A stretch of DNA of 64,000 nt from Olavius algarvensis Delta 4 endosymbiont (GTDB lineage Bacteria; Desulfobacterota; Desulfobacteria; Desulfobacterales; CAJINA01). This document shows positions 10,614 to 64,000 of the stretch, piece after piece. The translations under genes were made by a program, and so were the position numbers. Under the pieces are notes generated by a model. It ran no database searches. It was not told the DNA's origin and saw only the letters and a list, made by a program, of their open reading frames with translations. The stretch is taken from assembly GCA_905176665.1 (NCBI GenBank), contig CAJINA010000259.1, positions 24,363-88,362 of the forward strand, in the 5' to 3' direction. The stretch's first letter is position 1, and the number at the start of each line of letters is the position of its first letter.

Positions 10614-11345
10614 TTAGGGCCGGTTTGCCAGGTACCATTGTACAGCCTGGGCACTGTGCTTAAAGGACAAGGGCAGGTCCCAGCGGCGCTTGTCCCGGTC
10701 CCCTACCAGGTTGCTGACAGCGCGTATCTCTAGAAAGGGTAGGTCATACAGGAGCGCCACATGCGCGGCGCCGGCACCTTCCATGTTCTCTATCAAGGCC
10801 CCGAAGTGTCCGTGCAGCCACGCGGTGCGGGCCGCCGTGGTGGTGACCGTGGCAACAGTAACAAAAGGCCCCCCGTGCACCGGCACCCCGACCGCGGCTG
10901 ACGCGGCATTCAGGGCCTGATCGCTGATGTCCACGGCCACCGGATACTGATTGAATATGGCCTGTCCCGGTTTTTGGATGACCGGAAACGGCAAGGGACC
11001 GATTGCGGACCTGGGCACAGCAGGTTCCAACCCCAGGTGGGCATCAAATTCCGTTGATGCAACCGCCACATCGCCGATCTGCATTCCGGCCTCGCTGAAA
11101 CCGCCGCCGCAGCCGGTTTGCAGGATCAAGCCCGGTCTTTCCTTTTCAATGGCCGCCGTCAGGCCCTGCACGGTATTGGCGATCCCCGGGCCGGTGACCA
11201 GCAGCCGGACCGCCTGGCGTCCGATTCGTCCGCGCAGCAGTTCCCGTCCGCCCGCCTGCTCGGGTGTCGCCCCGGAAAGGTTTTTAATCAAATCCTCTAT
11301 TTCGCCGGGTACCGCCGCAGCTATAAGGATGTCACCGCTCACCAT
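10614..11345 (-). CDS. mqnB: futalosine hydrolase (PNP/UDP nucleosidase family)
   Basis: 243 aa with a nucleosidase-fold motif (ENMEGAGAAHVA). It lies adjacent to mqnD. Confidence 0.7.
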   Translation of the reverse strand: MVSGDILIAAAVPGEIEDLIKNLSGATPEQAGGRELLRGRIGRQAVRLLVTGPGIANTVQGLTAAIEKERPGLILQTGCGGGFSEAGMQIGDVAVASTEFDAHLGLEPAVPRSAIGPLPFPVIQKPGQAIFNQYPVAVDISDQALNAASAAVGVPVHGGPFVTVATVTTTAARTAWLHGHFGALIENMEGAGAAHVALLYDLPFLEIRAVSNLVGDRDKRRWDLPLSFKHSAQAVQWYLANRP

Positions 11346-11346
11346 A

Positions 11347-12003
11347 TCAGGTTCCTTTCTCGTCGCCGGCCATGCCGTTTTTCACCATCGTCACAAGTTG
11401 GCGCGCCCAATCGGCAGCCTGGTGACGGTCCAGCCCGTATAGCCCTATCCCGGCATCAAAGTGCTCCATGCTGAGAGATTGCAGAAAGCGGTCCATCATG
11501 GCATCCAGCAGGAAGGCGGCCTGGTCAAGGTCAAGATCGGCCCGCAGTTCGCCCCTGTCGCGGGCATCTTTTAAAAGTGAATGTAAATAGGAATGACTGT
11601 AGCGGCGTAAAGATAAGAGAATGTCGTCCCGAAAGGGAATCGTCCGGTCAGACTGGATACGCAGGTAGAGGGCATAAATCCGGGGGTGGTCGTTGACAAA
11701 CGCGATGCCGGCGGACAGGGTTTGGGTAAGACGGACGAAGATATCTTCGGTTGCGGTAGAATCCCGGACGTCGCGCAGGTAATTTTTGACCCTGCTCATG
11801 GACAGGTCGAATACATACGTGAACAGCCCGCTTTTATCGCCGAAATACTGAAATATGGATCCCTTGGCGATTTGCAGACGCTCGATCATGCGGTTGATGC
11901 TCGCCCCTTCGTATCCTCGCTCGGCAAACTCACGGGTCGCCACCGCGGTAATCCGATTGCGCTTGTCCTCCGGCAGATTGAAAAATGTCTGTTTGGCGGT
12001 CAT
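11347..12003 (-). CDS. TetR/AcrR-family transcriptional regulator
   Basis: 218 aa with an N-terminal HTH (ATREFAERGYEGASINRMIERLQIAKGSIFQYFGDK). Confidence 0.85.
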   Translation of the reverse strand: MTAKQTFFNLPEDKRNRITAVATREFAERGYEGASINRMIERLQIAKGSIFQYFGDKSGLFTYVFDLSMSRVKNYLRDVRDSTATEDIFVRLTQTLSAGIAFVNDHPRIYALYLRIQSDRTIPFRDDILLSLRRYSHSYLHSLLKDARDRGELRADLDLDQAAFLLDAMMDRFLQSLSMEHFDAGIGLYGLDRHQAADWARQLVTMVKNGMAGDEKGT

Positions 12004-24038: not shown

Positions 24039-24811
24039 CAGGTGACATCCTCCTTACCCAGGTACGCCTCGATGACCTGGGGGTTGTTCTGGATCTCGTC
24101 CGGGGTGCCCTCGGCAATAACCTCCCCGAAAACCAGGGTCTGTATGCGTTCACAAAGTTCCATGACAAATTTGAGTCGATGTTCGATAAGGAAAATAGCC
24201 ACGCCGAAATCGGCATGTACCTGGCGGATGATGGCGATCATCTGCTCGAGTTCTTCCGGCGTCATCCCGGCGGTGGGTTCATCCAAAAACAGGATCTTAG
24301 GCCGCGTGGCCATGGCCCGGGCCATCTCAACCCGGCGTTGGGCGCCATAGGGCAGACTGGTAACGAGTTGGTCCGCGAACTGGGCCACGTCGAACATCTC
24401 CATGAGTTCCAGAGAATGGGCTTCCACAGCGGCCTCTTCCCGGTGGCGTTTGCCCGTCCCGAAGAAGGCCCCGAACAGGCCGTAGGTAAGCTGGGAGTAG
24501 TGGGCCATTTTCACATGCTCGAGCACGTTCATGTGCCGCCAGAGCAGCAGGTTCTGAAACGTGCGGCCCAGACCCCGGGAGGCGACCTGATGGGGCATCA
24601 GCCCGAGGAGGTTCTGATCTTCCAGGCGTACTTGCCCTTCCGTGGGGGTATGGATCCCGGTTATCAGATTGAATATCGTGGTTTTTCCGGCACCGTTGGG
24701 ACCGATGAGCCCTTTGATTTCGCCGGGCTCAATCGTAAGATTGAAATCGTGCACGGCGCGCAGCCCGCCGAAAAAGTGAGTCATCTTTTCAACCTGGAGC
24801 AGGGGCATCAT
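24038..24811 (-). CDS. livG: branched-chain amino acid ABC transporter ATP-binding protein (LivG-type)
   Basis: 257 aa with GPNGAGKTT and LFLDEPTAG. It overlaps both neighbouring genes. Confidence 0.9.
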   Translation of the reverse strand: MMPLLQVEKMTHFFGGLRAVHDFNLTIEPGEIKGLIGPNGAGKTTIFNLITGIHTPTEGQVRLEDQNLLGLMPHQVASRGLGRTFQNLLLWRHMNVLEHVKMAHYSQLTYGLFGAFFGTGKRHREEAAVEAHSLELMEMFDVAQFADQLVTSLPYGAQRRVEMARAMATRPKILFLDEPTAGMTPEELEQMIAIIRQVHADFGVAIFLIEHRLKFVMELCERIQTLVFGEVIAEGTPDEIQNNPQVIEAYLGKEDVT

Positions 24812-37440: not shown

Positions 37441-38136
37441 ATGGACATCCTCAAATGCTATAGAACCCTGGGACTGCCCCCGGATGCCACCGGCGAGGAG
37501 ACCAAGCGTGCCTATCGGAAACTGGTGAATCATTGGCATCCGGACCGTTTCGCTCGGGATGACGCCTTGCACCAACTGGCGGAAGAACAGGTGAAACTGC
37601 TGAATGTTGCCTATGCGGAAGTTCAAAAGCACCAGTCCACCCGTCCGCGCCGCTACCGGGCCCCTCGCGCATCGGTCCCCCGGCCCGGCGCTTCGAGACG
37701 GGTCGCGCCGGGCTTGCAGCCATCACGATCGCGACCGCCGGCAGCAGGCCGCGTACCGGCCGTACTAAACCGATTGACTAGAAAATTCAGACAGGTGCTC
37801 TCCGACTGGGTGGTTGCACCGCAAAGACCAGGTCGGGCCAGGAAACCTGCCGGGCGGCCGACCGCGCCGCACCTTGCTCGCGGCAAGCACGGAAAGATGC
37901 GTACCGGGCGCGGTAAAAACTTCGATCAAATTTTCAACGAAGTTGCCGGCCCGGATGCCGCTTTCATTAAAAAGACCGCGGCTCGCAAGAAACACAGTCT
38001 CCGGAAAGCCGCTGCCTCCAGAAGGACAACCGCGGGCTCTGTCAAACCATCTGCACGGGGAAAGCAAGACGAATATTCCACTGTGATTACCCCGGTCGCA
38101 CGGATAAGACGGGTTGGAAAGATCCACCGCGTCTGA
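37441..38136 (+). CDS. J-domain (DnaJ-like) protein with Arg/Pro-rich low-complexity C-terminus
   Basis: 231 aa. The J-domain reads DILKCYRTLGLPPDATGEETKRAYRKLVNHWHPDRF and includes the HPD tripeptide. Confidence 0.75.
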   Translation: MDILKCYRTLGLPPDATGEETKRAYRKLVNHWHPDRFARDDALHQLAEEQVKLLNVAYAEVQKHQSTRPRRYRAPRASVPRPGASRRVAPGLQPSRSRPPAAGRVPAVLNRLTRKFRQVLSDWVVAPQRPGRARKPAGRPTAPHLARGKHGKMRTGRGKNFDQIFNEVAGPDAAFIKKTAARKKHSLRKAAASRRTTAGSVKPSARGKQDEYSTVITPVARIRRVGKIHRV

Positions 38137-48245: not shown

Positions 48246-49417
48246 ATGAAAGAGCGTACCAAGTTATTATGGATTGTGGGTATTTTTTCAGCCGCCTATT
48301 ACGTGCCGTGGAGCCATCCACTTATCCGGCAGTCCGGGCTGGAAGCCTTTATGATGTTGCAGGAATATGCCCGGGAACATGTCCTGACCTGCCTGATTCC
48401 AGCATTTTTCATCGCCGGTGCCATTGCCGTGTTTGTTTCACAGGGCGCGGTCTTGAAATATTTTGGGGCCCAGGCCAGTAGATTCTGTCATACTCGGTTG
48501 CATCGGTTTCGGGAACTATCCTGGCGGTCTGTTCCTGCACTGTGCTGCCTTTGTTCGCCGGTATCTATACCCGCGGGGCCGGGATCGGGCCGGCTACAGC
48601 ATTTTTATACTCAGGCCCTGCCATCAACGTACTTGCAATCACGTTAACGGCCAAGATTCTGGGCTGGCAACTGGGGCTTGCCCGGGCCATCGGTGCGGTT
48701 GTTTTTGCTATTGTGACCGGACTGTTGATGACCCTGATTTTTCGCAAGGATGACGCTGCCCGTACGGCGGGTCAGATTTATGTACCGGATTCTGAAGGTA
48801 AGGAGCGTACACTGTTCCAAGACACCCTGTACCCGTTAACGATGGTTCTGATACTGGTATTTGCCGCTTTTGCAAAACCGGCACCGGGATCTACCGGTTT
48901 ATGGCCGGCTATTTTTGCTGCCAAGTGGTATATCACCATTGCTCTCCTGATTATCCTTGGTTTCATGCTGAAGTCCTGGTTTACCCGAGATGAGTGCAAA
49001 AGCTGGGTGGAGTCCACCTGGGGATTTATGAAGCAGATCTTTCCACTCCTGGCCGGCGGAGTTTTGGTGGCTGGCTTCCTTCTGGGTCGTCCGGGCCATC
49101 CGGCCCTGATTCCTGAGCAATGGGTCCAATCCCTCTTGGGCGGGAACTCATTTTCGGCTAACCTGATCGCCTCATTGGCCGGTGCTTTTATGTACTTTGC
49201 CACCCTTACCGAGGTGCCGATTTTACAGGGCCTTCTGGGTGCCGGCATGGGCCAAGGCCCGGCCCTGGCCCTGCTGCTGGCCGGACCAGCGCTTTCCCTG
49301 CCCAACATGCTGGTAATCGGCAGTGTCATGGGGGCCAAAAAAACGGCCACTTTTTGTGGTATTATCGTTATCATGAGCACCTTTGCCGGGATGATTTACG
49401 GCACTTGGTTCGCATAA
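48246..49417 (+). pseudogene. COG0701/ArsP-like permease carrying a 1-nt frameshift
   Basis: Frame A reads ...VLKYFGAQAS up to about 48479. The conserved continuation ILSYSVASVSGTILAVCSCTVLPLFAGIYTRGAGIGPATAFLYSGPAINVL is in the -1 frame from 48482. The junction agtagatt is consistent with loss of one base. Confidence 0.7.
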
Positions 49418-50104: not shown

Positions 50105-51461
50105 ATGACTCGAAATAAGCCCGGGAAAACTATTCGCAGCGTCCTGGACGCCTGTGCCGATTGTGATACCTGCCGCTTTTTAATGGACGAAAGCTGCCCG
50201 CTGTTTCCGGAACTCTATCGGCTGTACGACCAGGAAAAGGAAAAAAATGAACCGGCTGACTACGATGCATTACGAAAGTTGGCCGACCGTTGCACCCTCT
50301 GTGGCCTTTGTCCCTGCCCCAACATTCGTGCAGATGTAATCCGTGAGAAAACCGAAAGGGTCCGAGAAGAAGGAATGCCTCTGGGCGTTCGCTTGCTGGC
50401 CGATGTACAGACATTTGGGCGCTGGGGCAGCCTGGCTCCAAAGGTCCTGAACAAGGTGCTTTCATTTGCGGCTGTCCGGCAGGTAGCCAAAAAAATAGCG
50501 GCGATCCACCCCAAACGTGACATCCCTGAATTGGCCGGGGAAAACTTCTTTCACTGGGCACAAAAAAAAGGCCTGGTGCACGCCGCACAGCAAGCCCCCA
50601 AGGTGACTTACTTTGCGGGTTGCTCTGCCGGATATCTGTTTCCGGATGTAGCCAAGGCTACTGTTAGAACCCTGCACAGCAGCGGTGTATCAATCTACGT
50701 GCCTCCCCAGCAATGCTGCGGGATGCCCAGCCTGCTCGAAGGTGATGCGCCAACAGCCCTTAAGCGCATGGGCGCGAACCTGAAAATTCTACTGCAGGCT
50801 TTAGCGGATGGATATGATTTAGTCTGCTCATGCCCCACCTGTGGATTTTTAATGAAAGTGCTTTTAAAGGAAGGCGCGTTTTACTCGACTGATTATCAGC
50901 AATCGGTATCACCTGACGACAACGAAATGTGGGTTCCCGGAAATGAAACGGGAACGTCCAGTTTCATGCGTTTAAAAAAATCAGTCTATACAAAGATACT
51001 TACGGACAACAGCTACTTTTCTGACCTCGAGCCGCTGGAAAGGATCAACCTGGCTGCAAATATAATGGATTTGGGCCAATATCTAGAACGACTGCATGGT
51101 CGGGACCGTCTTAATACGCAGTTTGCAGCCGTACCTGGCCACATGGTATATTATGCGCCCTGTCACCAGCGGGAACAGCGAATGGGTACGCCCTACCTGG
51201 ACTTACTGTCAAAAATTCCTGATCTGAAAGTTAAACGGGTCGGCAACCAAATGGATTGCTGCGGCATGGGGGGGCAGCTTAGGCTATAAGCAAAGTTTTC
51301 ATGATATGGCGAAGCAGTTGGCCGAGCCGTTGATGCGCGAAATTCAAGCTGCCCAACCGGAGGCCATTATCACCGATTGCTTGAGTTGCCGGCTCCAATT
51401 TCAACATTTACTGCCTTACCCTGTATTTCATCCAGTGGAAATCATCTCGCAAGGGTACTAA
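50105..51461 (+). pseudogene. Fe-S oxidoreductase with two CCG domains (GlpC/GlcF/HdrD-like) carrying a frameshift in a G7 run
   Basis: The N-terminus has CADCDTCRF and CTLCGLCPCP clusters. CCG motifs are PPQQCCGMP and MDCCGMGG. The track ORF stops at 51289. Removing one G from the run at 51268-51274 gives MGGSLGYKQSFHDMAKQLAEPLMREIQAAQPEAIITDCLSCRLQFQHLLPYPVFHPVEIISQGY, ending at 51461. Confidence 0.7.
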
Positions 51462-52084: not shown

Positions 52085-52984
52085 CTATCTGGCCTCGGGG
52101 TTGGCAGGCGTGATACTGAGCAGCTGGTTGATTTCGCTTAATAAACGGCGATAAATGAGCTTGTTGGCTTTCTCCAGAGTGTAGGGCAGACATTCTTCCA
52201 CGGCACCAGTTTTCAAAGCGATACGTTGCAATTCTGCAATCAGCCCCGCACCATCAACTTTCTGGCTGCAGCAGGCCGTGCAGCGCCGGCAGGCCAGGCA
52301 CAGCCAAAGCGACGGTGATGCCAGCAACTCCTGATAAAGTCCGAGGTTAACCATGCGGAAAAGCGCGCGTGGATCGAAGACGTTGCGACTACCGGACGCC
52401 GGGCACCCGCTGCTGCATTCACCACGCGTAAAACAGGCCTGGGCTTGATGGGCGCTGGTCAATTTCCCGGTAAAGGATCTGACGGCGCTGTCCGCTCTGC
52501 CGGTAATGGCGCGCCCATCGGCGGGAATGGACGTATCTATCCAGCGATACCAAGTTGAATCTGATAAGTCTTCGAGTTCACCGCCCGCCAGGCAGATGGC
52601 GGTCGCTTGCCAGCGTACGCGCTGAAAACGCATCCACAGATCATAGTGTTTCTTTGCGGTTCCACGGGAAATATCGCCCCGGCGTATTTCTTCCGTGCGC
52701 ACATAATCAATGACAGCAGCCGGGCTGACAGTATTAGGGCATATATTGGCACAGCGCAGGCAGCGCTGGCAGTACCAGATATCCGGCAACTCGAGCAAGT
52801 GCGGCAACATCCCGAGGGCCGCCATACGCACAATACTTCGCGGCCGAAGGCGGCCGGTGAAAATGTTTACCGGGCATTCGAAGTCGCACGATCCACAGGT
52901 CCAGCAACGTTGAATACCGGCTAAATATACGGACTCAATCGAATTTCTCTGCTGGCGATCAACTCTGATGACGGGTGTATACAT
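52085..52984 (-). CDS. tandem HdrC-like 4Fe-4S protein
   Basis: 299 aa. The first module has CWTCGSCDFECP and CQRCLRCANICP. The second, degenerate module has CFTRGECSSGCP and CLACRRCTACC. Confidence 0.6.
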   Translation of the reverse strand: MYTPVIRVDRQQRNSIESVYLAGIQRCWTCGSCDFECPVNIFTGRLRPRSIVRMAALGMLPHLLELPDIWYCQRCLRCANICPNTVSPAAVIDYVRTEEIRRGDISRGTAKKHYDLWMRFQRVRWQATAICLAGGELEDLSDSTWYRWIDTSIPADGRAITGRADSAVRSFTGKLTSAHQAQACFTRGECSSGCPASGSRNVFDPRALFRMVNLGLYQELLASPSLWLCLACRRCTACCSQKVDGAGLIAELQRIALKTGAVEECLPYTLEKANKLIYRRLLSEINQLLSITPANPEAR

Positions 52985-55799: not shown

Positions 55800-56483
55800 C
55801 TACTCTACAGCCGTTTCCGATTGCGCGTGCCAATCGGCCACCGTTTCACCAAGCCGCTGCATGTCCTCCCTTATGAACTGCTGGGTGGCGGTAGCCAAAT
55901 ATCTGTAATATGGCAGCTCTGTTTCCTGGATGGTCAGACCGGTGAAGGCGTCGATCCACTGCCCCAGATGAGAATCTAGAAATTCAGATTGCTGCACGAG
56001 GCTTGCGGCGGCTTCATCAGCACGCCCCTTGTGGAGACAATTCAATTCTTCAACGATAAGCACGTGCATGAACTCCAGCTCGGCACTAATGTGGTCGGGC
56101 GGATTTTTGAAACCTTCATCTACGGTCAAACCGGCCGCTAAATAGCGTTTGACGACATCCAGGGTGCTGTCTCCCATGATTTGACGCTTGTCATCGAGGT
56201 AAATGGAACCGAAAGGCGGTGCCAGAAGCTGATACGGGCCGATAAAGAGTTTGGCGAACTGAATCTCGAGGTCGTCGACACTAATGCTTGTGTTCAGCTC
56301 ACTGCGCATCATGATCACTTGTGAAATAGCGATCGACCCCGTGGCGCACAGTCCTGTTTCGAGCTGTTTCAAAACTTCACTGATACCCGGTTCAGGCGGG
56401 CTATAGCATTTTGAAAACGCACGATAAAGTTCACTGCGGTATTTCTCAATACTCAGTACATCGTTCTCATTCATGTCATCCAC
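55800..56483 (-). CDS. TorD/DmsD-family redox-enzyme maturation chaperone-like protein
   Basis: 227-aa helical protein placed between the NrfD-type and FmdE genes. YRAFSKCYSPP and FAKLFIGP are typical of this family. Confidence 0.6.
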   Translation of the reverse strand: MDDMNENDVLSIEKYRSELYRAFSKCYSPPEPGISEVLKQLETGLCATGSIAISQVIMMRSELNTSISVDDLEIQFAKLFIGPYQLLAPPFGSIYLDDKRQIMGDSTLDVVKRYLAAGLTVDEGFKNPPDHISAELEFMHVLIVEELNCLHKGRADEAAASLVQQSEFLDSHLGQWIDAFTGLTIQETELPYYRYLATATQQFIREDMQRLGETVADWHAQSETAVE

Positions 56484-56588: not shown

Positions 56589-57695
56589 TTAATCCGGCAC
56601 GGCTTCCAGTTTCAGGTAGCGCTCACCGATGCTGTACACCAGCAGCATGACCGCGAAGCCAAACAGGGCCACGAAGACCTCGTAGACAGTCGGCATATAG
56701 CTGACAATTTCAGGGCGGCCTTCCGCCATTTGACCGAGCGGCCGGACAACACCGCTGAGCACAAACTCCAAACGCCCGGCAAACATGCCGACGAGCAGGA
56801 GCGCACTGGCAGTAATCTTGCCCCCAACGGTAGCTCTGATTTTTGGAACCAGCATCAAGACAGTGGGCGCGACCAGACCCAGCCAGAATTCGATATTGTA
56901 TGGGATTGAACCGACCATGTGCTTGAAGGCCTGATATTCCACAGCAGTCGAAGATATACCGCCGCTGACGGTACGCCACAGAAAAAGGACCCCGATAACG
57001 CCGGCGACAATTCCCATCAATCGCGCAAACTCATTGAAAAGAGCGTCTCTGTCGGCGGTCAATGACTGATTCGTCAGATAGTTGTATATCATGGTAAACA
57101 AAAGCAGCGCAGCCATCCCGGAAGCAAGCCCGGTGAGTGGGAAATAAAAGGAAAAGAAAGAGGCATTCAAAGACGGTCGCGCATCGGTCATACCCAACAA
57201 CCAGCCAAGGGTCGTGGATGTAAAGATAGCAATTATGAAGACCAACATCCCCAATGTTTTGCTTATGGATCCAGTGTGTATGCGCCAGAACGCGCTGAGC
57301 AGCAGAACAAAATAAGCACCGTAGAGCACAGCCAACCACCATAACGGTGAGGCCGGATTTGGGGAAAGCAAAATATAGATGACATTCAATGGGGCGCCGA
57401 GATGCAGAATCAGGCAAACAAAGGAGCCGAGCAAAACAGCAATCTCCAGATACACCGTACGTTTTTCAATCACCTCGTATCGTTTTATACCGAACACGAC
57501 TGGAAAAGAGGAGACGAAGGCCAAGCCGGCGCTGGTAAGGCTGAAAAATATATAGGTCGACAGTGGCAAAGTCCAGACCAGGACATCCGTTTTGGCATAC
57601 ACTGCAAACCCGACGGAATAGACTTTGAAAGTTGTCCAGAGGCCGAGAAGAATGCCGAGGCCCAGCAATCCAATCCAAAGATTATATCTATTCAT
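56589..57695 (-). CDS. NrfD/PsrC-type polytopic membrane quinol-interacting subunit
   Basis: 368 aa with about 8-10 TM. It directly abuts the Fe-S subunit gene (57695/57696). Confidence 0.8.
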   Translation of the reverse strand: MNRYNLWIGLLGLGILLGLWTTFKVYSVGFAVYAKTDVLVWTLPLSTYIFFSLTSAGLAFVSSFPVVFGIKRYEVIEKRTVYLEIAVLLGSFVCLILHLGAPLNVIYILLSPNPASPLWWLAVLYGAYFVLLLSAFWRIHTGSISKTLGMLVFIIAIFTSTTLGWLLGMTDARPSLNASFFSFYFPLTGLASGMAALLLFTMIYNYLTNQSLTADRDALFNEFARLMGIVAGVIGVLFLWRTVSGGISSTAVEYQAFKHMVGSIPYNIEFWLGLVAPTVLMLVPKIRATVGGKITASALLLVGMFAGRLEFVLSGVVRPLGQMAEGRPEIVSYMPTVYEVFVALFGFAVMLLVYSIGERYLKLEAVPD

Positions 57696-58421
57696 TTATA
57701 CACCTCCTTTCGTCCTTGGGTAACCGGCCGAGCTGAAATCCCTGATGTAGTAGACCGCAGGTTCCGTCCCCACGGCTTCCTTCAGCCGAAATGGTCTGAA
57801 CTTACCCAATAATTGGTTAACCTCACTTTTAGGATCGTCGAGGTCTCCGAAAACCCGGGCGTCCGCCGGACAGGCTTCCACGCAGCGCGGCAACTTGTCC
57901 CGCGAGACCCTGTGATCGCAAAACGTGCATTTCTCCACGACCCCTTTGGGCCGGATATCAGGCAGGGTTGCGCCGCGTTCGGGGTTAAAATATGGTACGC
58001 CCTTTCCGCCGTTCTTACGAACTTCTTCGGCCGGCGATGAGGTCACGTTGGGAATTACGGCTTTGTTGTCCTTCCAAGAGGCGTGGGCATTTTTCCAGTT
58101 GAAGTAAATCACCCCGTACGGGCAATTGATCATGCAGTACCGGCAACCGATACATTTGTCCGGGTCATGCATGGTGATGCCGTTATCAAGTTTGTGCATC
58201 GCCCGCGTGGGGCAGCCGCGCACACAAGGGGGATTTTCGCAGTGGTTGCATAGAGTCGGGATATAGTGATACCGCACATTGGGAAATGTTCCCGAGGTTT
58301 CCGTTATTTTATGCGACCAGTAGAACCCTTCCGCCACGTTGTTTTCATTGCGACAAGAAATACTGCAGGAACCGCAGCCAACGCACCGCCGAAGGTCGAT
58401 GACCATTGCATATCTTGGCAT
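57696..58421 (-). CDS. four-cluster 4Fe-4S subunit (PsrB/PhsB/DmsB-like)
   Basis: 241 aa with CVGCGSCSISC, CNHCENPPCVRGCP, CIGCRYCMINCP and CTFCDHR...CVEACP. Confidence 0.9.
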   Translation of the reverse strand: MPRYAMVIDLRRCVGCGSCSISCRNENNVAEGFYWSHKITETSGTFPNVRYHYIPTLCNHCENPPCVRGCPTRAMHKLDNGITMHDPDKCIGCRYCMINCPYGVIYFNWKNAHASWKDNKAVIPNVTSSPAEEVRKNGGKGVPYFNPERGATLPDIRPKGVVEKCTFCDHRVSRDKLPRCVEACPADARVFGDLDDPKSEVNQLLGKFRPFRLKEAVGTEPAVYYIRDFSSAGYPRTKGGV

Positions 58422-58432
58422 TGTTTCCCTCC

Positions 58433-61015
58433 TTATAGTTTTTCAATTTTAAGCCGGGTTACGGCATAGTAAGCTGAGCTTCCGCTCAGGGCTTCGTATT
58501 GGGCCGGAATCAAGTCGTTGCTACTGCCTCCACGGGGGGTTTTCCCGAACTCTTCAGAGGCAATTTTTCCATAGGCCCAGTGGCCCTGCCCATAGCACTT
58601 TGCTACCGTACCCGGGCGAACCCCTTCCCAGAGTTTGGCCGTACAGACCAAACTCCCCGTCGGCGAGGAGAGCTTGATCCGGTCTCCATTGGCGAGGCCC
58701 AGCTTGGCGGCATCCAGGGGATTGATTTTGGCCACGTCATCCCAGGTTTCATCACCGGGATCCAGGTCCTTGAAGTCGAAGTACCAGGTGCAGTTGGCTG
58801 ATCGTCCCTCCCTGTTCAGACGAGATTTGTGGTCCACGTGGATGAATGGATACTCCTTTTCATCCCCCAGTATGAAAGGCTCTTCATAATGAGGTACGAA
58901 TGCCATTTCGCCCTTGGCCAGATACTTGGCGGCCTCCAAAACTTCATCGACGGAAACGCCGTGTTTTCCGGCGTGTTTTTCAAGGGCCGCCTGGAGGGTT
59001 TTGCTGTAGAATTCAAACTTGCCAGTTTTGGTCTTCATCTTGCCCCAGCGTTTACGGAAAGGATACGGATTAGAGTTCCACACCCCCACCTTGGCAAACT
59101 CCTTCCAGCCGTTGAACTTATCACCGCCCTTGTATTTGGCCGGGTCCCACAATTTTTGGGTGGCATACTTGAGGGCATAAAGGGCAAACTCTTTTTCGTT
59201 CCTTGGCGCTTTGCCCGTTTCCGGGTCCTTATAGGTTTTATAATGCCGCAACAGGTTGTCAAAGCCGCGCTTGGCCAGTTTTTCGGCAATCAGCCAGGGA
59301 ATCTCAGTCTCGTCGGTTTTGTAATCCCACAGGTTTTTTACGATGGGCTGCATCAGGGTGACATGCCGGTACCCGTTGGCGTGCGCTTTTACATAGCCCC
59401 ACTTTTCGAACATGTGGTGGGTATCCGGCAACACGATATCGGAAAACCAGGAGAACTCCGACGCGTTGGTGGTAATATGGACCAGAAAAGGAATTTTCGA
59501 CAGGGCTCGTTCCCAGCGTTCCGGCTGTGGCGCCGAAAACGAGAAATTGTTCATATAGGCAATGGCCACTTTGATCTCGTTGGGATCGGCATTGAGAATA
59601 CCATCCGCGGCATTGTTGGTAATAACGCCGCTGCCCGGGTTACCTTTTTTCAGGCAGGGGATATGCAGTCACCCGCGTTGATCGATCTTCTCATGTTTCT
59701 TGCCCTTTTTCGCGATTTCGTCCATGAACGGTTTGGGCTTGGGAAACTTGGTCGTATACTCCTTGTTGGCTTTCAACGTGCCGCCAAAATTGTCCGCGGC
59801 TCCGACAATTCCGTTCAAAGCATGCACAGCCATGGCTGCGTACCCGCCGCGGACTTGCATACAGGGCCCGCCGCCCAGCCAGGAGATGCAATGGGGGGCT
59901 GCCTTGCCATAGCCGATCGCCACGCGCCGAATCTGCTCTGCAGGTACTCCGGTTATCGGGGCCGCCCATTCGGGGGTCTTATCTTTCAAGGCCAGATTCC
60001 AGTATTTAACAATACCGTAGGTATGCATTTCCTCGAAGGCATCTTCCGCGACCGTTTCTCCTTTCACGAAAAGATTGACCCCCTCTTTGAAATCGCCCAC
60101 GAATGGTTTGTACCAGAGCCCTTCGGTCAGCAGGACGTGGGTAATCGCCAGCGCCAGGGCGCCGGCCTGGCCGGGTTTGATCGGCAGCCACTCATCGGCT
60201 TTGCCGGCCGAGGCTGACAGCCGGGGTTCGACTATCGCAATGGTGGCCTTGTCCACCACGTCTCCCCAAACCTTTGAATAGTACGAAACCTGGCGGTTGG
60301 CCGCCAACGGGTCGGCCCCCCAAAGGAGAACATAGTGGGCATTGAGCACGTCGTACTGCCGATAGCCCCAAATGCCCTCGGTATAATAAGGACCGAACTT
60401 TTCCGCCTCGGCGCACAATGAGCTGTGGGAAATGTTGTTGGGGGAGCCTATTATTTTGGTCATCCGGTCATACAGAATATCGCGCATGTACGAGTAACGC
60501 CCGCGCATCAACATGTACTTGTGGGTTTCGTTGTTGTTGCGCAGCTCCATAATTTTATCGGCTATGGTATCCAGGGCCTCATCCCAGGAAATGGGCACGA
60601 ACTGCGGATCTTCATTGCGCCCCTTTTTAGGATTGGTACGTTTCATAGGCGTTTTGATACGGTCCGGATCATATAACTGCTGGAGCCCCATATGAGAGCG
60701 CGGGAAGCCCGCCCCCATATTCACCTTCGAATGCGGATTGCCGCGGACTTTTACAGCGCGGCCATCAATGACATACACCTGCTTGGAGCACCAGGACGTA
60801 CACCCCTGGCAGGTGGCCGGGAGCCACTCCCCCAAGTCTCCCGAACCCTTGCCTGAAGCGACCGCCAGGGCGCTCAGTTCCGGTTTTAGTCCCGCTCCCA
60901 TAGCCACGGCAGCTCCGGTAGCTGCAGAGGCCTTGACAAAAGAGCGGCGTGAGAGCTTCACATTCTTCAAAAAACCAGCCATCAGGGTTTTCGGCTTATT
61001 TTTCGTTTTTTTCAT
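58433..61015 (-). CDS. Tat-exported molybdopterin oxidoreductase catalytic subunit (PsrA/PhsA-like) containing one in-frame TGA (selenocysteine or nonsense)
   Basis: The start MKKTKNK at 61015 follows GGAGGAG. The Tat motif is SRRSFVKAS. The N-terminal cluster motif is CQGCTSWC and the putative Mo-ligand region is SHSSLCAEAEK. ORFs 59669..61210 and 58433..59569 share one frame, separated only by TGA at 59669-59671. Confidence 0.8.
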
Positions 61016-61094: not shown

Positions 61095-61505
61095 TCACTT
61101 CCCACCTTGATCTTTATCCGGAGGATCGCGGGTATCGGCCTGATTCTCACGGATGCAGCGAATCCAGTAGACCAGTTCATCGGGATCGACCGGTTTGTTG
61201 ATGCAGGCAAAAATATGGTAGCAAAGGGCTTCTTTGAGCTCCGGATGGAAACGATCCCGGGAAGTGCAGAGAAAGCAGACGTCAGGATAAGCCAGGGTCA
61301 GGCTGCGGATCGCACGATTGCCGATATCCAGGCTGTCGATATCCAGTACAACCGCCATATAGGATGAATCGGCCAGGATCTTCATCATGTCAGCCAGCGT
61401 GTGGCAGGTTCGGCTCCGGTACCCTGCTGATACGATTATATCCGTCAGGAGAGCCGCTTCATCCCGATCCAAACTGGCTATGAGGATACTGGGGTCATTT
61501 TCCAT
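61095..61505 (-). CDS. single-domain receiver-like protein (CheY-like)
   Basis: 136 aa. AVVLDID (phospho-acceptor position), LCTSRD and INKP match receiver landmarks. The N-terminal acidic pair is atypical (SLDRDE). Confidence 0.55.
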   Translation of the reverse strand: MENDPSILIASLDRDEAALLTDIIVSAGYRSRTCHTLADMMKILADSSYMAVVLDIDSLDIGNRAIRSLTLAYPDVCFLCTSRDRFHPELKEALCYHIFACINKPVDPDELVYWIRCIRENQADTRDPPDKDQGGK

Positions 61506-61977: not shown

Positions 61978-64000
61978 TTAATGCAGTGTGGGCTTCTTTA
62001 TATCGTATTTTTTTAGTTTTTCATAAAGCGTGCTGCGGCTGATGCCAAGTTGGGCGGCCGCGGCACTCTTATTCCAAGCGCAGGCTGCCAGCGCGTCCTG
62101 GATCAACTGTTCTTCGCTTTCGATCATGGTGAGGGTTGCTCCGGCGGCGGGCTTTCGAATGCCGGTCTCTTGGCCACCCTGGAGTGAAATCGGCAGATCA
62201 CCCGTCTGAATCTTGTTGGTTTTAGCAAGTACAACCGCGTGTTCGATACTGTTTTCCAGTTCGCGTACATTCCCGGGCCAGGAGTGGTCGAGCAGCAGGC
62301 GCATGGCCTCCTCGCTGACGCCGGACATGGGTTTATCACGTTCACGGGCAAAGTGTTTGAGAAAATGGGTGGCTAACAGCGGGATGTCGTTGCAGCGCTC
62401 CCGCAAGGAGGGTATATTTATGGGGATCACATTGAGCCGATAGAAAAGGTCTTCCCGGAAACGGCCGGCCTTGACCTCATCTTCGAGCTTGCGGTTGGTG
62501 GCGGCGAGGATACGCACGTCGACCTTTATGGATTTATCTCCCCCAACGCGCTCAATGGTGTGATTCTGCAGGACCCGCAGAAGCTTGATCTGAGCTGTGG
62601 GTGAGATCTCTCCAATTTCATCTAGAAACACGGTGCCGCCGTTGGCTTGCTCAAAACGCCCGATTTTGTGCCGGGTAGCCCCGGTAAAGACGCCTTTTTC
62701 ATGCCCGAACAATTCACTTTCCAACAGAGTTGCCGGGTAAGCGGAACAGTTGATCACCACGAAAGCGTTTTCACACCTTTCGCTGGCTCTGTGGATGGCC
62801 TTGGCCACCAATTCCTTGCCGGTGCCGCTTTCACCCAGGATTAAAACCGTCGCATCCGTAGGCGCCACATCTTCAATGAGCTGATATACCATCTGCAGTT
62901 TTGGGTCGCGGCCGATAATGTCGCCGTAAGCCGATGATTCTTCAACTCGGGTCCGGAGCGAATGCATAGCCCGTTCCCCAATCAGGGCCCGATTCAGAGC
63001 TCCGGCGGTTTGATTTATCAGCAGCGACACCATGCGCAGTTCATTTCTAACACAATGACAATGATCTGTGCAGCCCACTAACAGGGCGCCAAGTGGCCGA
63101 TTTTCATGGTAGAAAGGAAATAGAGCCACTCTACGGGTAGCCCTCACCTGCTCGGGCAAGGCCAGCTTTGCGACCTGGTCGCCTGCCAGCCACCCGAATT
63201 CGTCGATCTCTGCCACCAGGCCAGCGAATTGCGTATAGGCCTCTGTATAAAATGGCGTAGTTGCACCCAGGGTAATATACATCATTGTGTTACGTTTTTC
63301 GTCCAAAACCACGATCGACATGTTCCGGCACTGCACGATGGAACCCAGGGTTCCGATCATGTAGTCAGCCAATTCGTTTAATGTCGATAAAGCTGCGATA
63401 TGCTGTGAAAAAGTCAAAGAGGCGGAAAGTTGTTTTCGAGCCCGGTCGAGCTCAACGTTCTTGGCTTCGAGCTGTTCCTTCGATTGGTTAATTCTGGTCA
63501 GGTAGTTTTTAACCCGGTCAAGCATGCCATTGAAAGCATCGGTGAGCGCAGCTACTTCTTCACGCCCCTGAATATCCAGTCGCGTATCCACTGATTTCTC
63601 GTCGATGGTTGCAACCGCAATCTTGAGCTGTGTCAGGGGGCGTAAAAGCCTGCTGCTGAGAATATTTGTCAACATCAATGCTATCCCCAGTATGATCAGG
63701 GTCAACATTGCCATGGAAATCCACATCGCAGCGACCTGTTCACGGTAGGGCGCTTCCGCCAGCCCCACCCGGAGTGTACCAGCCCGGCCGCCGAAAATGG
63801 GCAGGGCGACATCAATGAACCGTTCTTTTTTCTCGGAATTGACCTTTACTATTTGACTGTGCTTTTCGGTTGGGTGGGGCAGGTTCAGATCGATGAGAGC
63901 CCTCGGTATGCCGCCTTTAAACGTGTGCGCCACGACCTGACGGTCCCGGTTGACAACGAAAAGATAGGCCACGGTCGCATCGCTGGCAATCTGGTCTTGA
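61978..64000 (-). CDS. sigma-54-dependent transcriptional activator with extracytoplasmic sensor region, TM helix, HAMP, GAF-like, AAA+ and Fis-type HTH domains (N-terminus beyond window edge)
   Basis: AAA+ motifs are [21 protein letters not shown] (a GAFTGA variant) and VFLDEIGE. The C-terminal HTH is [22 protein letters not shown] helix ([23 protein letters not shown]) is followed by a HAMP-like segment. The frame stays open to position 64000. Confidence 0.85.

Follow-up and report, generated by a model that had tools for sequence, protein, structure and literature searches.

We analysed a 64,000-nucleotide stretch of DNA from the Olavius algarvensis Delta 4 endosymbiont (contig CAJINA010000259.1; hereafter the window), in which a gene resembling arrA, the molybdopterin subunit of respiratory arsenate reductase, carries an in-frame TGA. 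An earlier reading of the same DNA, made from its letters alone (the sequence-only reading), had asked whether this TGA encodes selenocysteine (Sec) or is a nonsense codon. Our comparisons with homologues and with other contigs of the same symbiont population indicate that it is very probably a plain nonsense mutation. The features of the interrupted gene are:

58433..61015, minus strand: arrA-like gene, molybdopterin subunit of respiratory arsenate reductase, 860 codons, interrupted by TGA; very probably a pseudogene allele in the window
59669..59671, minus strand: in-frame TGA, codon 449 of arrA, derived from CGA (Arg) by a C-to-T change at the first codon base, 59671
59669..61015, minus strand: N-terminal fragment actually encoded, 448 amino acids, with the twin-arginine (Tat) signal, the iron-sulfur domain and part of the molybdopterin domain
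58433..59569, minus strand: orphan C-terminal open reading frame (ORF) from the ORF list, 378 amino acids from a GTG, with the Molydop_binding domain
59631..59657, minus strand: fortuitous 7-bp hairpin with a 13-nt loop, not a selenocysteine insertion sequence (SECIS); its arms come from Pro-Cys-Leu and Pro-Gly-Ser codons

On the minus strand, the frame that opens with the ATG at 61015 and closes with the TAA at 58433 has 860 codons and one internal stop. The protein around codon 449 reads KKHEKIDQRG*LHIPCLKKGNPGSGVITNNAADGIL, and the fifth residue past the stop is Cys; both the in-frame TGA and this Cys had been noted before, and our translation bears them out. The nucleotides at the stop are GGG TGA CTG, which places a C directly after the UGA. 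A 448-residue gene is likewise called in five further contigs (L087, L088, L090, L092 and L093), and the C-terminal gene calls on contigs with TGA are 373 or 378 amino acids long and contain PF01568. Residues 450-482 of the intact protein fall upstream of the start of the C-terminal ORF. This segment includes the nearly invariant VxTNNAADGI, and its nearly invariant positions among the best 120 homologous proteins are V464, T466, N467, A470, D477, P478 and I481.

The protein had been labelled PsrA-like, but family and structure comparisons place it with ArrA. The NCBIfam model ArrA (NF041714) is the best family for both halves of the gene in the window, at 649.7 and 628.0 bits, compared to 190 bits for PhsA. 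The intact allele of the population (P0001) scores 1309.3 bits with this model, under its curated equivalog cut-off of 1600 bits, and 253 bits with PhsA (NF012032). Against the solved ArrA of Shewanella sp. ANA-3 (6CZ7 chain A), the intact allele scores 1161 bits over residues 61-859, compared to 139 bits against 2VPW, a thiosulfate/polysulfide reductase. The likeness to 6CZ7 runs from end to end and takes in the Tat signal, the C-x2-C-x3-C...C iron-sulfur motif (CQGCTSWC), RGRYS and ISHSS(L/V)CAEA(E/H)K, and the alignment matches all of CQGCTSWC, RGRYS and ISHSSxCAEAxK. The Cys in SHSSLCAEAEK pairs with ISHSSVCAEAHK of the solved ArrA, which confirms the earlier prediction that the molybdenum ligand is already a Cys. 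At the mutated column 6CZ7 carries Arg (KIDQRGRLEFP), as do the intact symbiont alleles. Unlike 6CZ7, the window allele ends at codon 449 and has Phe in place of the fourth iron-sulfur Cys. The PsrA/PhsA polysulfide and thiosulfate reductases belong to the same superfamily as a related clade, and their three-subunit A/B/NrfD layout is similar, but the match to them is much weaker.

Three further genes follow arrA on the same strand:

57696..58421, minus strand: arrB-like 4Fe-4S ferredoxin subunit, intact; NCBIfam ArrB (NF041715) is the best family at 329 bits, below its cut-off of 450 bits
56589..57695, minus strand: NrfD-type membrane anchor, arrC-like by family search, intact in the window
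55800..56483, minus strand: TorD/DmsD-type Tat chaperone, arrD-like by family search

Judged by sequence similarity, the operon is of the arrABCD type and not psr, and the interrupted protein is a member of the ArrA family or a close relative. The same similarity suggests arsenate as the substrate.

The residue found at codon 449 in relatives is the most direct evidence on the nature of the TGA. We compared 80 homologous loci from species-representative genomes plus two near-identical metagenome contigs (L001 and L002), making 82 loci in all, and separately aligned the best 120 database matches as proteins. An Arg codon stands at this column in 76 of the 82 loci (CGC 24, CGG 16, CGA 13, AGA 12, CGT 7, AGG 4); the others have Thr (4), CAG for Gln (1) or AAG for Lys (1). 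The protein alignment has R in 115 sequences, T in 3, K in 1 and S in 1. TGA, TGC, TGT and TGG are absent from the column in all 82 loci, and none of the 120 proteins has Cys, Sec or Trp there. Because all six Arg codons are used, selection appears to act on the arginine itself. The nearest other species (L003, 89% amino-acid identity) has CGA at codon 449. The sequence-only reading had proposed that an alignment of homologues would reveal either Cys/Sec or Trp at this position; the lack of Cys and Sec speaks against a Sec site, as that proposal foresaw, but the alternative residue turns out to be a conserved Arg and not Trp.

Alleles within the symbiont population point the same way. A protein identical to the one encoded at 37441..38133 bears the name of the O. 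algarvensis Delta 4 endosymbiont in NCBI, whose population these alleles represent; for 24041..24811, no exact protein match was returned. Other contigs of the Delta 4 population share 99.6-99.8% DNA identity with the window across 15-17 kb around arrA, and they fall into two groups at codon 449:

CGA, intact 860-residue gene: L001 (JGI 3300004264), L002 (SRR6232155), L089 (JGI 3300027620), L091 (JGI 3300003829)
TGA: the window, L087 (Logan ERR5036061), L088 (Logan ERR5035997), L090 (JGI 3300027585), L092 (JGI 3300001741), L093 (Logan ERR5035888)

The five TGA assemblies other than the window come from five different samples, processed by the JGI and Logan pipelines. Since the near-identical contigs and L003 all carry CGA, the change is CGA to TGA at 59671, a C-to-T transition in a CpG context. 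The origin suggested earlier, TGG (Trp) to TGA, therefore does not hold, and the mutation lies at 59671, not at 59669. The TGA is linked to other single-nucleotide polymorphisms (SNPs) specific to its lineage, namely A509V in the sigma-54 activator, E721E in arrA and L55L in the UPF0060 gene. In the protein collection, 448-residue products occur on 57 contigs (P0126 on 52, P0125, which is the exact sequence of the window, on 4, and P0132 on 1) and full-length 860-residue products on 34 (P0128 on 25, P0130 on 8, P0001 on 1). An important caveat to these contig counts is that they come from overlapping assembly pipelines and not from independent samples, so that they are not a clean allele frequency. 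The TGA allele is genuine, and it is common in the population sampled.

We conclude, with a probability of roughly 0.93, that the TGA is a plain nonsense mutation of the Arg449 codon in the arrA of one lineage of the O. algarvensis Delta 4 symbiont. The nonsense or pseudogene alternative of the sequence-only reading is thus the one supported by the Arg column, by the CGA sister alleles and by secondary changes on the TGA haplotypes. Translation would end at the UGA and leave a 448-residue fragment that keeps its Tat signal and lacks residues 449-860. The lost part would include the VxTNNAADGI segment and the Molydop_binding domain, such that the fragment could not hold the molybdenum-bis(molybdopterin guanine dinucleotide) cofactor and no active enzyme would be made. 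The operon would then be non-functional in the TGA strains and, under relaxed selection, would be drifting and in the course of being lost from that lineage.

Two changes in arrA besides the stop are relevant to this interpretation:

60704..60706, minus strand: arrA codon 104, TTC (Phe) for TGC (Cys), C104F, by a G-to-T change at 60705; only in the window, L087 and L088
60164..60166, minus strand: arrA codon 284, GCC (Ala) for GAC (Asp), D284A, in the GQDGALA motif; Asp in 120 of 120 homologues

In the N-terminal C-x2-C-x3-C...C [4Fe-4S] motif, Cys104 is the fourth Cys, and all 120 of 120 homologues have it. C104F is a second inactivating change, specific to the sub-lineage of the window. D284A is shared by all TGA alleles and the intact 860-residue alleles L089, L091 and P0130, and it is therefore older than the TGA. 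ArrA function may have been impaired, or selection on it relaxed, before the stop arose. Within the TGA lineage, P0132 also has M124I in arrA, and L090, whose haplotype includes the arrA TGA, has W120* (TGG to TAG) in arrC (10727..11833, the orthologue of 56589..57695 in the window). The haplotype tables give the order as D284A, then R449*, then C104F, M124I and arrC W120*. These last three are seen solely on haplotypes with the stop, although the events are few, and an operon that has fallen out of use would be expected to show such a confinement. Pyrrolysine use has been reported for the symbiont consortium (PMC1976440), but the arrC TAG stands at a Trp column, and there is no reason to suspect pyrrolysine there.

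The multi-contig table shows three changes specific to the sub-lineage of the window and four specific to the TGA lineage. We had also considered the differences between the window and L001 (32 substitutions, with 18 of the 28 coding ones non-synonymous) as a sign of error or decay. This was withdrawn, as the majority set L001/L002 apart from every other strain and are unpolarised.

Both marks of a pseudogene are thus present at the locus: codon 449 is a sense codon in close and distant relatives with intact alleles, and extra disabling changes, though few, lie on the TGA haplotypes. A nonsense change followed by more inactivating changes while intact alleles persist is the pattern of segregating loss-of-function alleles and pseudogenes in host-associated bacteria. 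Compared to other segregating pseudogenes, nothing is unusual here except the affected pathway, arsenate respiration in an annelid symbiont. Nothing at the site lies outside known biology, and this is an ordinary nonsense allele. Intact and broken alleles of the arsenate-respiration operon occur side by side in this gutless-worm symbiont, a loss-of-function polymorphism. The arrA polymorphism could provide a natural label for strain lineages or for relaxed selection on this pathway.

Four points weigh against a plain nonsense allele. First, the C-terminal fragment carries no amino-acid change (P0127, P0129 and P0131 equal the intact allele) and so gives no evidence of decay past the stop; the TGA allele is probably young. 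Second, TGA is frequent, at about 57 of 91 contig records, and a strongly deleterious allele would not reach that level if arsenate respiration mattered. Third, UGA followed by C is a weak stop in E. coli termination contexts, and some read-through is possible. Fourth, UGA is reportedly read as Sec in other genes of this organism (PMC1976440).

The first three of these points would agree with a leaky or bypassed stop, which we nevertheless consider improbable. Here some arsenate reductase activity would be kept, either through near-cognate read-through of the UGA-C seen in the sequence or through a split enzyme assembled from the 448-residue and 373- to 378-residue pieces. Such activity would explain the high allele frequency, and it agrees with a C-terminal ORF that is unchanged at the protein level and with arrB, arrC and arrD that are intact in the window. 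However, a split enzyme would lack residues 450-482 with their nearly invariant positions, which makes it unlikely, and read-through would replace the conserved Arg. Moreover, the iron-sulfur ligand Cys is lost in the sub-lineage of the window and a TAG interrupts arrC elsewhere, a pattern expected of an operon that does not work.

A related proposal, which we hold to be less probable again, is that UGA-C is partly decoded in the TGA strains, as Sec by way of the fortuitous hairpin or by near-cognate read-through, and that some full-length ArrA is made, which would help to explain the allele frequency. If this were true, recoding at codon 449 would be opportunistic and of very recent origin, at a position not occupied by Cys.

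Full recoding, in which UGA-449 is decoded as Sec, the hairpin acts as a bacterial SECIS and a full-length selenoprotein ArrA is made, is very hard to sustain. The organism itself is no obstacle. Selenoproteins, SelD and FdhA among them, have been reported from the Delta 4 symbiont (PMC1976440), and the Sec machinery is probably encoded elsewhere in its genome. The 64-kb window contains no tRNA genes, and no Sel proteins are found among its annotated ORFs. Given the reported use of Sec, an absence of sel genes is not available as an argument against recoding, nor is that argument needed. A wholesale reassignment of TGA was considered and ruled out, because TGA ends 18 of the 47 window ORFs taken as genes as well as clpS and the methyltransferase; the statement that TGA is a genuine stop elsewhere in the window is thereby upheld. 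A scan of the window for further genes interrupted by one TGA turned up, apart from arrA, nothing but shadow or antisense frames.

The stem-loop invoked for recoding exists as it was described, with seven base pairs including one G-U and a 13-nt loop, and it lies 15-41 nt past the U of the UGA. Its 5' arm is CUGCCUG (59657..59651), its loop AAAAAAGGUAACC (59650..59638) and its 3' arm CGGGCAG (59637..59631). It does not, however, behave as a SECIS. The arms consist of the codons CCC-TGC-CTG (P-C-L) and CCG-GGC-AGC (P-G-S), and the hairpin is a by-product of these codons with no role. The folding energy of the 47 nt that begin with the UGA is -12.6 kcal/mol (z = -0.52), and among 200 dinucleotide shuffles 56 are at least equally stable; a 66-nt stretch gives z = -0.32 against shuffles. 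When the same ungapped register is read in the 80 homologous loci, all seven pairs are possible in just one, that of the closest species (L003), and the commonest value is four of seven. A 68-sequence alignment gives no covariation, with 49.8% of cells paired compared to 48.6 +/- 1.2% in shuffled alignments and 52.1% with the 3' arm slid by +2. Four homologous stretches fold into unrelated structures. An Rfam scan of 59300..60000 returned no SECIS match and just a sub-threshold algC (19.1 bits against a gathering threshold of 33.8), which is a weak negative, as Rfam may not include a bacterial SECIS model. This loop begins with AA, whereas bSECISearch expects a G among the first two loop nucleotides. 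Finally, the hairpin is unchanged in the 99.6-99.8% identical sister alleles that have CGA, and it must therefore predate the TGA.

The codon itself is equally unfavourable to Sec. The selenoproteome study of these symbionts took Cys-containing homologues at the TGA column as its working criterion for a Sec site (PMC1976440), and codon 449 has no such homologue among the 120 proteins or the 82 loci. Nor is the position catalytic or redox-active as would befit Sec: the molybdenum ligand is a Cys already, and the residue five past column 449 is variable (C 46, A 57, S 14, V 3 in the best 120 proteins). The secondary inactivating mutations on the TGA haplotypes also argue against a working selenoprotein. 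The nearest precedent is the Sec-containing formate dehydrogenases (FdhF/FdhA), members of the same superfamily in which an in-frame UGA is followed by a stem-loop, as here. In FdhA, however, Sec is the molybdenum or tungsten ligand and is aligned with Cys in Sec-free homologues, whereas arrA has Cys as the ligand, and its UGA lies some 250 residues further downstream, at an Arg column. The stem-loop at arrA, unlike that of the Sec formate dehydrogenases, is not conserved. With Arg at the column and a stem-loop that is neither conserved nor covarying, the selenocysteine alternative of the sequence-only reading falls away. More generally, an in-frame TGA with a plausible hairpin in an organism that uses Sec can be plain nonsense, and it is the alignment column that settles the question.

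The other alternative raised at the outset, a sequencing, base-calling or assembly error in one record with the real gene intact, has in its favour that one base separates the window from the intact alleles, but it is excluded for practical purposes because the same T at 59671 recurs in the five other JGI and Logan assemblies listed above and the truncated product lies on 57 contig records, with the T linked to lineage-specific SNPs.

Several genes near the arr operon are also disrupted or variable. A GlpC/HdrD-like CCG-domain gene (50105..51289, plus strand) has an extra base at 51268 relative to other strains and encodes 394 instead of 451 amino acids in the window and L087. In L089 and L091 the same gene has a different 1-bp deletion and is split into 202 + 166 amino acids. 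This gene beside the arr operon has thus undergone two independent frameshifts. For these symbionts, the listed selenoprotein families include GlpC-like iron-sulfur oxidoreductases (PMC1976440). An HdrC-like iron-sulfur protein (52085..52984, minus strand) has an in-frame 9-bp insertion in L089 and L091 (302 vs 299 amino acids), and C187R, Y113H and S254R, all unpolarised, set the L001/L002 strain apart from all others.

An ArsP-like permease is seemingly split over two overlapping plus-strand frames, 48246..48647 and 48542..49417. The N-terminal ORF of 133 amino acids has a weak ArsP_1 match, and the 291-residue ORF covers positions 70-293 of the ArsP_1 model. As the gene is split alike in all strains read, either a fixed frameshift or an annotation problem could account for it.

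Upstream of arrA, a 136-residue ORF at 61095..61505 has no family match. Beyond it come genes for a PhnD-like periplasmic binding protein and for a HAMP/sigma-54 activator (61978..64000, minus strand), continuing past the window end (5847..9038 in L001). This arrangement recalls the AioX/ArxX/ArrX sensing of arsenic oxyanions (PMC5908839).

Among the arrA homologues, that of the Olavius Delta 3 symbiont (L004, CAFBRK010000074.1) is 85% identical. A Candidatus Methanoperedenaceae archaeon, known from a metagenome-assembled genome (L065, JACUTP010000004.1), has a homologue 72% identical to the bacterial one, with Thr at column 449; this archaeal copy suggests inter-domain transfer of arr genes.

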